Shown here piece by piece: positions 3,811 to 4,484 of a DNA stretch of 20,941 bases; the stretch's first letter is position 1; the number at the start of each line of letters is the position of its first letter. Made by a program: the position numbers and the translations under genes. Under the pieces are notes generated by a model. It ran no database searches, had not been told where the DNA came from, and saw only the letters and a program-made list of their open reading frames with translations. The stretch is taken from the NCBI GenBank assembly GCA_043804895.1, contig JAZDIN010000053.1:1-20941 (forward strand), written 5' to 3'. The DNA is from Candidatus Altiarchaeota archaeon. GTDB lineage: Archaea; Altiarchaeota; Altiarchaeia; IMC4; SCGC-AAA252-I15.

Positions 3811-3834
3811 TTTTACACCTATCGCTTTTATCGA

Positions 3835-3982
3835 GGGTTCAGCAGAATACCTCGCCGTTAGGCGGAGGATGTGGCTGAGAGCTGTCTGCTCTCAGACACA
3901 CGCCAGAGACTACTGTCTCTGCCGTGTGAACGCCCATAATGCTGAACCCGAGAGAATATCGCAGCCTTCAGGCTGCGGTATT
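3835..3982. ncRNA. Candidate structured non-coding element (multi-helix junction plus terminal hairpin), identity unknown
   Basis: 10-bp closing stem 3835-3844/3940-3949 enclosing three hairpins (3850-3868, 3875-3895, 3897-3928), followed by a 12-bp hairpin 3955-3982. The pairing is read directly from the sequence, but the RNA function is inferred. Confidence 0.5.
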
Positions 3983-4016
3983 TATTTATGCCCGCAAATA
4001 GTTAAAAGGTGTTCCA

Positions 4017-4484
4017 TTGGAGAAACTCAATTCCCTTGTTTCGAGGATACGCTGGAAGTCTGTCATAGCAGTCATATTACTCGTAGCGGTGGCATACACC
4101 CTTATCCAGTATTTTCCAGGCGGTTACCAGACGAGCGGGAACATCGGCCTAAAAGTCTCAGCCAAACCTGATTCGATGACTCCAGGCGGATCGACAACCC
4201 TCGAGGTTGAAGTGAAGAACATGAACTCTAAGGAGGAGGTGACGGTCACAATCAGAGGCCGCACCTTCGAGAAGGAGATTATGTTCGCAGACACGCAAAC
4301 CCAGAACTATGCGAGCGACCCGATACAAATTGGCCCACAAGGCGTGAGGAAGCTGAGTTTAAGCGTCAAATCAAGCAGGGCCGCGCTTGAAGGCGAATAC
4401 CCCGTGGAAGTTACAGTCTCGGCCGAGGGAGTCGACAAGCCTCCGGAGAAGATGGTGCTGATAAAGGTCGAACGCCCCAGTTAG
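4017..4484 (+). CDS. Hypothetical membrane-anchored exported protein with an Ig-like beta-sandwich domain
   Basis: TTG start with AGGTG SD-like motif, one N-terminal TM helix (VIAVILLVAVAYTLI), then the beta pattern PGGSTTLEVEVKN...EGEYPVEVTV seen in CARDB/NPCBM-associated-like domains. Confidence 0.7.
   Translation: MEKLNSLVSRIRWKSVIAVILLVAVAYTLIQYFPGGYQTSGNIGLKVSAKPDSMTPGGSTTLEVEVKNMNSKEEVTVTIRGRTFEKEIMFADTQTQNYASDPIQIGPQGVRKLSLSVKSSRAALEGEYPVEVTVSAEGVDKPPEKMVLIKVERPS

Follow-up and report, generated by a model that had tools for sequence, protein, structure and literature searches.

A 154-nt gene-less element in a divergent archaeal promoter spacer: a probable palindrome-associated transposable element of the IS200/IS605 family

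Transposons of the IS608 type read their cleavage motifs by pairing with a short guide located 5' of each hairpin foot. For IS200/IS605 transposition, TAM, TEM and DNA guides are described in the part of PMC10055086 drawn on here. Palindrome-associated transposable elements (PATEs), as presented in the cited portion of PMC3119063, have no inverted terminal repeats, carry near-terminal palindromes related to those of IS605-type transposons and cause no target duplication; in Haloquadratum, according to the same portion, small mobile repeats insert into the near-terminal palindromes both of PATEs and of IS605-type transposons. According to the cited section of a census that relied on terminal inverted repeats (PMC11602168), no other archaeon has so high a MITE density as Candidatus Altiarchaeum hamiconexum.

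The DNA considered here, referred to throughout as the window, is the whole analysed stretch of 20,941 nt and belongs to a genome assembly of 1.58 Mb in 71 contigs (88.7% complete). An earlier note had singled out a densely paired stretch between the divergent genes mtiP and orf4017 and had proposed it as a candidate undescribed structured RNA. In our view, positions 3832-3985 represent, with a probability of roughly 0.8, a PATE, that is a gene-less 154-nt derivative of the IS200/IS605 family, and not an RNA gene. We rely for this on the structure of the copies, on empty sites, on the homology of both ends to tnpA-bearing elements and on the covariation of guide and target. The features of the locus are collected in Table 1.

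Table 1. Features of the candidate element and its flanks (window coordinates; G numbers denote related genomes)
Feature	Positions	Strand	Observation
Host target motif TTTAT (transposon-adjacent, left flank)	3827..3831	+	(T)TTAT directly left of CGAGG in 5/5 scaffold copies
Whole non-autonomous element (probable PATE), 154 nt	3832..3985	+	Excision restores the spacer of G003 and G001
Outer stem P1, 5' arm	3835..3844	+	Pairs with 3940-3949
AGAAT, proposed left-end guide pentamer	3844..3848	+	5' of left hairpin foot, within conserved CAGAATAC
Left-end subterminal hairpin (first hairpin of the earlier note)	3850..3868	+	Aligns with hairpin upstream of Y1 tnpA in G020 and G026
Nested 58-nt twin-hairpin small repeat (hairpins 2 and 3 of the earlier note)	3872..3929	+	Splits family motif GGATGAATGCC; boundaries ambiguous by 2 nt owing to a TG repeat
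Outer stem P1, 3' arm	3940..3949	+	Pairing seen in sequence and fold
Right-end subterminal hairpin, (A)ATA(C/T) foot	3955..3982	+	Aligns with hairpin downstream of tnpA in G042, G026, G020 and G023
Element-encoded terminal TTTAT (putative right cleavage site)	3981..3985	+	Three identical G042 IS copies end in ...ATATTTAT, flanks then diverge
Host spacer, putative promoter: TTAT (rest of split A/T box) and ATAGTTAAAA at 3998-4007	3986..4016	.	Boxes conserved in G001, G003 and G004

The gap between mtiP and orf4017 is 206 nt long and is the largest in the window; by crude longest-ORF calls the other gaps are all 95 nt or less, in keeping with the earlier statement that they fall below 100 bp. 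All of the pairings proposed from inspection of the letters are present (3835-3844/3940-3949, 3850-3868, 3875-3895, 3897-3928 and 3955-3982), and the minimum-free-energy fold of the gap consists of the 10-bp outer stem around three hairpins, followed by the 12-bp hairpin. Judged against 200 dinucleotide shuffles of the whole 206-nt gap, the + strand folds as RNA at -93.6 kcal/mol (shuffled mean -56.5, s.d. 4.3, z -8.64) and the - strand at -87.5 kcal/mol (z -7.33), with 0/200 shuffles as good in either case; positions 3826-3992 folded as single-stranded DNA gave -48.6 (z -8.92). Neither strand is favoured as an RNA, which speaks against the RNA-gene proposal. A T-G pair at the base of the last hairpin had been read as a slight hint of a + strand RNA; this change is private to the window copy, the other copies and related transposon ends reading ATACC...GGTAT, and it is therefore uninformative on the RNA strand. 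The T-rich run following the last hairpin does exist, but it is made up of the terminal TTTAT of the element and the host TTAT and is not a dedicated terminator; the two jointly rebuild the A/T box found in the uninterrupted spacers of related genomes.

Searches for known RNAs agreed with the earlier impression that no familiar class is present. There were no Rfam matches in the window at gathering thresholds, and a permissive search returned STnc50 alone (16.3 bits versus a threshold of 55, E = 5.2), which is noise. ARAGORN reported 0 tRNA genes in the window, and no tmRNA was detected there. K-turn, C/D-box and H/ACA assignments for CAGAATAC / GGATGAATG were dropped by eye, the GA dinucleotides being misplaced relative to the stems. 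An integron attC site was likewise discarded, GTTAGGC in the first hairpin being taken as a coincidence with the inverse core absent. The TnpB Zn-ribbon (PF07282) and reverse transcriptase (PF00078) models each gave 0 matches in this genome, which argues against an omega-RNA or a retro-element. The only ORFs across 3832-3985 are long shadow frames from the neighbouring genes, and at 154 nt the element is too short for a transposase. To the left of the gap, the name mtiP agrees with our assignment of a MTAP/MTIP-family phosphorylase, which scores below the equivalog cut-offs and lies beside a deaminase-like amidohydrolase. On the other side, orf4017 (window 4017-4484) encodes a 155-amino-acid protein that belongs to no Pfam or NCBIfam family and has an N-terminus that looks hydrophobic; it is conserved beside the phosphorylase gene in 4/5 relatives searched, with 36-43% identity.

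The orthologous site is available for comparison in related genomes. The orf4017 protein was found in four of the five nearest genomes searched and is encoded divergently beside the phosphorylase gene in all four, as in the window; the amidohydrolase-mtiP/orf4017 synteny is kept in 4/5. The spacer measures 53, 48, 92 and 85 nt in these four relatives, which are distant ones (flanking proteins 32-56% identical), versus 206 nt here, and the element claimed as an RNA gene is absent from it in all four. The relatives' spacers carry two conserved A/T boxes, ..TTTTATTTAT.. and ..ATAGTTAAAA.., and taking out 3832-3985 restores their uninterrupted TTTTATTTAT box: at this place G003 has ..TTTTATTTATCCCC.. 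and the window has TTTTAT[154 nt]TTATGCCC, the order in the window being TTTTAT, the 154 nt and then TTATGCCCGCAAATAGTTAAAA. The filled site has one TTTAT (five bases) more than the empty site. As read from the sequences, an element that ends in TTTAT and causes no duplication and a 5-bp TTTAT duplication would fit this comparison equally well. A second copy (C52) gives the same picture: its lipoprotein/dapL-like spacer is ~105 nt here versus ~47-50 nt in G001 and G003, which are those of four same-genus loci keeping that neighbour. For copy C40, synteny is not kept at the orthologous site in G003, and the orthologous site of an element in G001 has just a weak paralogue in this genome. We note that the divergent mtiP/orf4017 spacer of ~50 nt keeps its two A/T boxes across the genus (window 3986-4016; loci L022, L023 and L024), each lying ~33 nt from the start codon of the far-side gene in the relatives; this spacing suggests crossed TATA boxes, and hence crossed promoters, for two short-leader genes.

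Five scaffold copies occur in the genome, with interiors that differ and only the ends common to all. Three are long, namely that of the window (C53), C3 (90% identical) and C40 (74%). The short copies C29 and C52 keep the outer stem, last hairpin and flanks with little or nothing between, C52 being outer stem plus last hairpin and nothing more. TTTAT stands on both sides of all five. The four-way junction on which the proposal of an undescribed RNA gene had been built is not conserved among the three long copies: in C3 the 5' arm of hairpin 1 has been lost, and C40 differs both in its third hairpin and in its topology. Outer stem P1 shows a compensatory G-C to A-T change in C29, and the P1 sequences of other subfamilies differ with pairing kept. 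The last hairpin recurs at ~30 loci in the genome, behind other upstream modules, and has compensatory variants (CGCAGCC/GGCTGCG, CACAGCC/GGCTGTG, CTCAGCC/GGCTGAG and CACAGGC/GCCTGTG). Orientation with respect to neighbouring genes varies, C40 being co-directional and both C53 and C52 lying in divergent gaps. Two different family members are found head to tail at L003:1395-1662 (G000:C40:16863-17130), the terminal TTTAT of the first being followed at once by the start of the second; a relative shows this arrangement as well (G042 L251:868-992), a PATE there lying directly behind the TTTAT end of a full IS.

Comparison of loci ending in the same hairpin reveals a common plan: TTTAT, the 5' arm of a long outer stem and CAGAATAC; a hairpin, followed by GGATGAATGC and a short spacer; then the 3' arm of the outer stem with a linker, ATACC-hairpin-GGTAT and TT(T/G)AT. 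The outer stems are wholly different between subfamilies and always pair. The family numbers ~25 members in this genome. RNAalifold on 12 uninterrupted members recovered the inner and last hairpins, with both-sided changes in 11/18 pairs, and each of the seven stem pairs of the left hairpin has both-sided changes in at least one sequence among these 12. Stem covariation would be expected for a functional RNA also. The left flanks of the 12 aligned members are TTTAT in eight, (A/T)TCAT in three and CTGAT in one.

The covariance model R1, built from the alignment of the 12 uninterrupted members, has 25 matches in this genome, among them the window copy at C53:3824-3991(+) (36.8 bits, E = 1.3e-4), and the TTTAT target motif occupies positions 4-8 of the model consensus. 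The + strand is the 'top' strand bearing both end hairpins. R1 matches 29/60 related genomes with several copies each (12/20 of the same family, 12/22 of a sister family and 0/8 of the most distant family). By BLAST, the full-length element is found in none of the 60 related genomes, while modules of it occur in five. An outer-stem 17-mer hit 71 loci in a public genome collection and 93 in a metagenome collection (80 of the 93 fetched); of the 151 filtered loci none carries the rest of the element, and they look like chance matches. The cited parts of the MITE census (PMC11602168) and of an archaeal insertion-sequence survey contain no description of this family; the kind of element is known and the family is apparently new. 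Two members (G000 C3:33368-33483 and C25:148512-148627) have the interior, comprising the hairpin and GGATGAATGC motif, inverted between the outer-stem arms, which points to a recombination or template-switching event across these inverted arms. An inversion of this kind is readily explained for DNA palindromes but not easily for an RNA whose loops are conserved.

Relatives of the element carry a transposase. PF01797 (Y1_Tnp, the IS200/IS605 TnpA) matches in 21/60 relatives at E <= 0.001, 20 of them over the family cut-off; it has 0 matches in this 88.7%-complete genome and in 0/4 same-genus genomes searched. A tblastn search with six ORFs from related IS loci, four of them Y1 TnpA, gave a best E of 0.059 in this genome, to an unrelated HD-domain gene. 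A REP/REPIN system with a RAYT was rejected, a single-copy Y1-type gene flanked by repeats not having been found in this genome. Nine R1 matches lie within ~400 nt of a PF01797 match on the same strand, in six genomes (three in G020, two in G026 and one each in G023, G042, G031 and G043). At four IS loci (two in G020, one each in G023 and G026), the left end, upstream of tnpA, scores 33-46 bits against R1, and in three of the four the right end, downstream of tnpA, scores 20-24 bits. Three identical IS copies in G042 begin TTTAT-TTTTATCG-TAATACC-hairpin and end AATACC-hairpin-GGATATTTAT, the flanks diverging beyond; their left boundary is ambiguous (TTTAT-TTTTAT-CG) and the register against the window copy is inexact. 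In alignments of the left ends (A5) and right ends (A3), the first and last hairpins of the window line up with those of tnpA-bearing elements from G020, G026 and G042, as do the ..AT-AC feet and the terminal pentamers; G023 contributes a right end only. The shared left layout is TT(T/C)AT | ... A(G/A)(G/A)AT-AC-hairpin-GA(T/G)GAAT, and the shared right layout is (A)ATACC-hairpin-GG-N1-4-TT(T/C)AT |, where the vertical line marks the boundary. G042 itself contains 17 PF01797 matches (for example at L251, L255 and L256), several identical IS200-like copies and 14 PATE-model matches; this expansion is active-looking and could supply a TnpA for testing.

At 32 of 34 assessable ends, four gapped ends being left out, position 3 of the cleavage pentamer forms a Watson-Crick pair with position 3 of the pentamer that lies 5' of the hairpin foot. 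Three pair types occur (T:A, C:G and G:C), and the remaining two ends are T:G. At the left ends alone, 15/16 pair and the other is T:G. Twenty of the ends were read by column (alignment A2: left, eight pairing, one T:G and three dropped for gaps; right, 11 pairing and one dropped) and 14 by eye from the printed A5 and A3 rows, with one row left out. TTTAT accompanies A-A/G-A-A-T/G, TTCAT accompanies A-G-G-A-T/G, and TTGAT or TTGGT accompanies A-T/C-C-A-T/C; the AGAAT of the window aligns with AGGAT in those tnpA-bearing IS copies whose target is TTCAT. Guide pairs can differ between the left and right ends of a single element. The pairing register is deduced from covariation at this one position, the other positions varying too little.

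Hairpins 2 and 3 of the earlier description prove to be one module of 55-62 nt, ATGTGG-hairpin-ACACAC-hairpin-GTGTGA, in which each half has a 3-bp GUG/CAC base, one mismatch and a stem of 6-8 bp. A pattern search found 20 copies in this genome, including that of the window, and by BLAST three relatives also have matches, G039 with 13, G014 and G040 with one apiece. The sense strand is the stabler one in 3/20 copies and equal in 2/20. In the window the module splits GGATGAATGCC into GGATG and AACGCC; in both the window and C3 the break in the family motif GGATG|AATGCC falls at the left hairpin's 3' foot. C40 keeps this motif intact and has a module in the loop of the left hairpin instead, and these different positions imply independent insertions. 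Paralogous filled and empty sites for the module are also provided by the sister family. The nested insertion is common to C53 and C3, which lie at unrelated loci and are both flanked by TTTAT, from which it follows that the composite was copied after nesting. The four-way junction is thus only apparent, resulting from a second small repeat nested at the foot of the left hairpin of the first together with the clamping stem. The earlier alternative of a four-way-junction ncRNA or a structured DNA element holds in its second half and is not supported in its first. We also note three twin-hairpins in this genome (G000 C4:79489-79547, C33:5166-5224 and C48:12200-12237) that lie between inverted CCTTTCTTTCTT / AAGAAAGAAA runs, the flanking runs at C33 and C48 being the same as at C4:79489; the C4 module is directly behind an apparent tRNA 5' half and may sit in an intron.

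Read as a PATE, the element starts after a TTTAT target, carries left- and right-end hairpins with ..AAT-AC feet and finishes in its own terminal TTTAT, P1 clamping the two ends together; the twin-hairpin entered afterwards, beside the left hairpin at its 3' foot. From these observations we infer the effect on transcription and, by analogy with IS608, the enzyme and the single-stranded DNA route as follows. A Y1 (HUH) TnpA supplied in trans would bind both hairpins on single-stranded top-strand DNA and find the cleavage pentamers through the guide bases 5' of each hairpin. Excision would proceed as a single-stranded circle, with insertion 3' of another TTTAT. Within the divergent mtiP/orf4017 promoter spacer the element landed in an A/T box, the one that would serve orf4017, and its terminal TTTAT would rebuild this box. 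The putative mtiP box (3998-4007 on the - strand, with a presumed TATA role) would now be ~190 nt from the start codon, and the mtiP mRNA probably starts near 3975-3980, in which case the whole element would form a structured leader on the - strand.

That this leader has been co-opted to modulate the stability or translation of the mtiP mRNA is compatible with a PATE origin, and we consider it unlikely. The element has entered between the conserved ATAGTTAAAA box and the start of mtiP, AGGTG and then TTG lie just outside the fold, the - strand also folds strongly, and a sister family is positioned directly before a start codon in 11/11 copies with insertion confirmed at ilvN. However, the promoter is assigned by deduction, the position is already explained by target choice (TTTAT / NNCAT) and the scarcity of non-coding DNA, and there is no conservation at the site outside this genome among the genomes searched.

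The sister family, which we term B, has at least 13 loci here and two in G003, and has its right-end hairpin in common with the window family. The loci are L218:1501-1613 (G000:C3:52366-52481), C1:23801, C11:45639, C24:31170, C41:5180, C41:12445, C44:11768, C47:16787, C61:1678, C3:44760, C4:118135, C4:123162 and C25:96674. The B left end (TACAAATACGCGAGGAT..) matches that of the G020/G026-type IS, and its target, NNCAT, is the reverse complement of the start codon; every one of the 11 inspected copies directly abuts the ATG of an unrelated gene. Several of these neighbours look like housekeeping genes by their N-termini (ilvN-like, L10e, Hjc, ileS-like, ABC ATPase and PIN). The leader that B adds is ~113 nt long and includes GGAGGTG; the ilvN spacer measures 159 nt here versus ~48 nt in G001 and G004.

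A conventional MITE mobilized by a DDE transposase, with TTTAT as a 5-bp target-site duplication, would also account for the TTTAT on both sides of the 5/5 scaffold copies and for the five extra bases of the filled site. We consider this very unlikely. Terminal inverted repeats are absent: the termini, CGAGGG.. and ..GGTATTTAT, are by eye not inverted copies of each other (~8/15 matches), and the ends are instead different subterminal hairpins on the same strand. Moreover, both ends align with the ends of Y1-transposase IS, which themselves finish in TTTAT, and the covariation of guide and cleavage site plays no part in transposition by DDE enzymes. A stand-alone structured small RNA gene on the + strand, ended at the T-rich run and with the other copies as its paralogues, would explain the very stable fold, the stems that covary within the family and the purine-rich internal-loop motifs CAGAATAC / GGATGAATG conserved among members, but is barely credible given the orthologous spacers without the element in four relatives, the interior architecture that differs among the three long copies and is inverted between the outer-stem arms in two members, the orientation not fixed relative to neighbouring genes, the same end structures flanking transposase genes and the lack of any Rfam match.

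Under the preferred interpretation of a PATE, a false lead is removed, one of the most strongly structured intergenic sequences of the genome being a transposon relic and not a new RNA class; structured-RNA screens of compact metagenome-assembled archaeal genomes will meet many such elements. An IS200/IS605 lineage of this archaeal order is also described, with its end structures, its TTTAT/TTCAT/TTGAT targets and its covarying guide position. Its elements insert into A/T boxes and beside start codons, in promoter spacers that are very short, and lengthen leaders by 110-155 nt. If the genome does belong to the Altiarchaeota, hairpin-ended elements of this sort may partly underlie the MITE density of Candidatus Altiarchaeum hamiconexum. 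A broader scheme is offered only tentatively, and we would not presume it to be correct: an otherwise ordinary PATE might host a twin-hairpin of an undescribed class of transposase-less small mobile repeats, which would home to the hairpin feet or loops of other elements and to tRNA-adjacent or intron sequence and be moved by some enzyme or at the RNA level; the composite would then have transposed again, nesting not having disabled the PATE, and the PATE superfamily, including the start-codon sister family, might supply structured leaders to housekeeping genes.

Comparison with known systems places the element closest to the PATEs. With the REP/BIME and REPIN sequences and their RAYT it shares dispersed intergenic hairpins, compensatory stem changes and a link to the Y1/HUH superfamily. 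However, REPs are 20-40 nt long and tagged with GTAG or CGTC, as characterized in the cited part of PMC3733652. They are also linked to a RAYT gene present in single copy, whereas the window elements are whole fused transposon ends in a genome with 0 PF01797 matches. The twin-hairpin resembles SMR-A of Haloquadratum, which in the cited part of PMC3119063 is a small transposase-less repeat in or beside PATE palindromes with no evident target duplication. Compared by description with that account, it is shorter (~55-62 nt versus ~110) and its ends are direct (TGTGG...GTGTG), not inverted; unlike SMR-A, it also occurs outside PATEs, including beside tRNA halves. The one-strand subterminal hairpins, left target pentamer and element-encoded terminal motif are those of IS608/ISDra2/ISGst-type elements, as far as these are treated in the cited part of PMC10055086. 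The guide 5' of the hairpin foot, complementary to the cleavage motif in IS608-type elements, has its counterpart here in the T:A, C:G and G:C covariation. Unlike those elements, the window element has no transposase, TnpB or omega-RNA, and its target is TTTAT (TTCAT/TTGAT in sister subfamilies).

The closest likeness is to the PATEs of Haloquadratum walsbyi. As described in the cited part of PMC3119063, these too are too short for a transposase, have no inverted terminal repeats and carry near-terminal palindromes related to IS200/IS605; in the same account they have a left-flank targeting oligonucleotide, heterogeneous interiors and, frequently, small repeats in or beside the palindromes. 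The window element likewise has a fixed left-flank targeting sequence within the 4-6 nt characteristic of a PATE. The two belong to different archaeal lineages, and the end hairpins of the window element, left and right, are unlike each other in sequence. The window family also differs from the Haloquadratum PATEs in that its left and right ends are held together by a long covarying stem, which makes a three-way junction.
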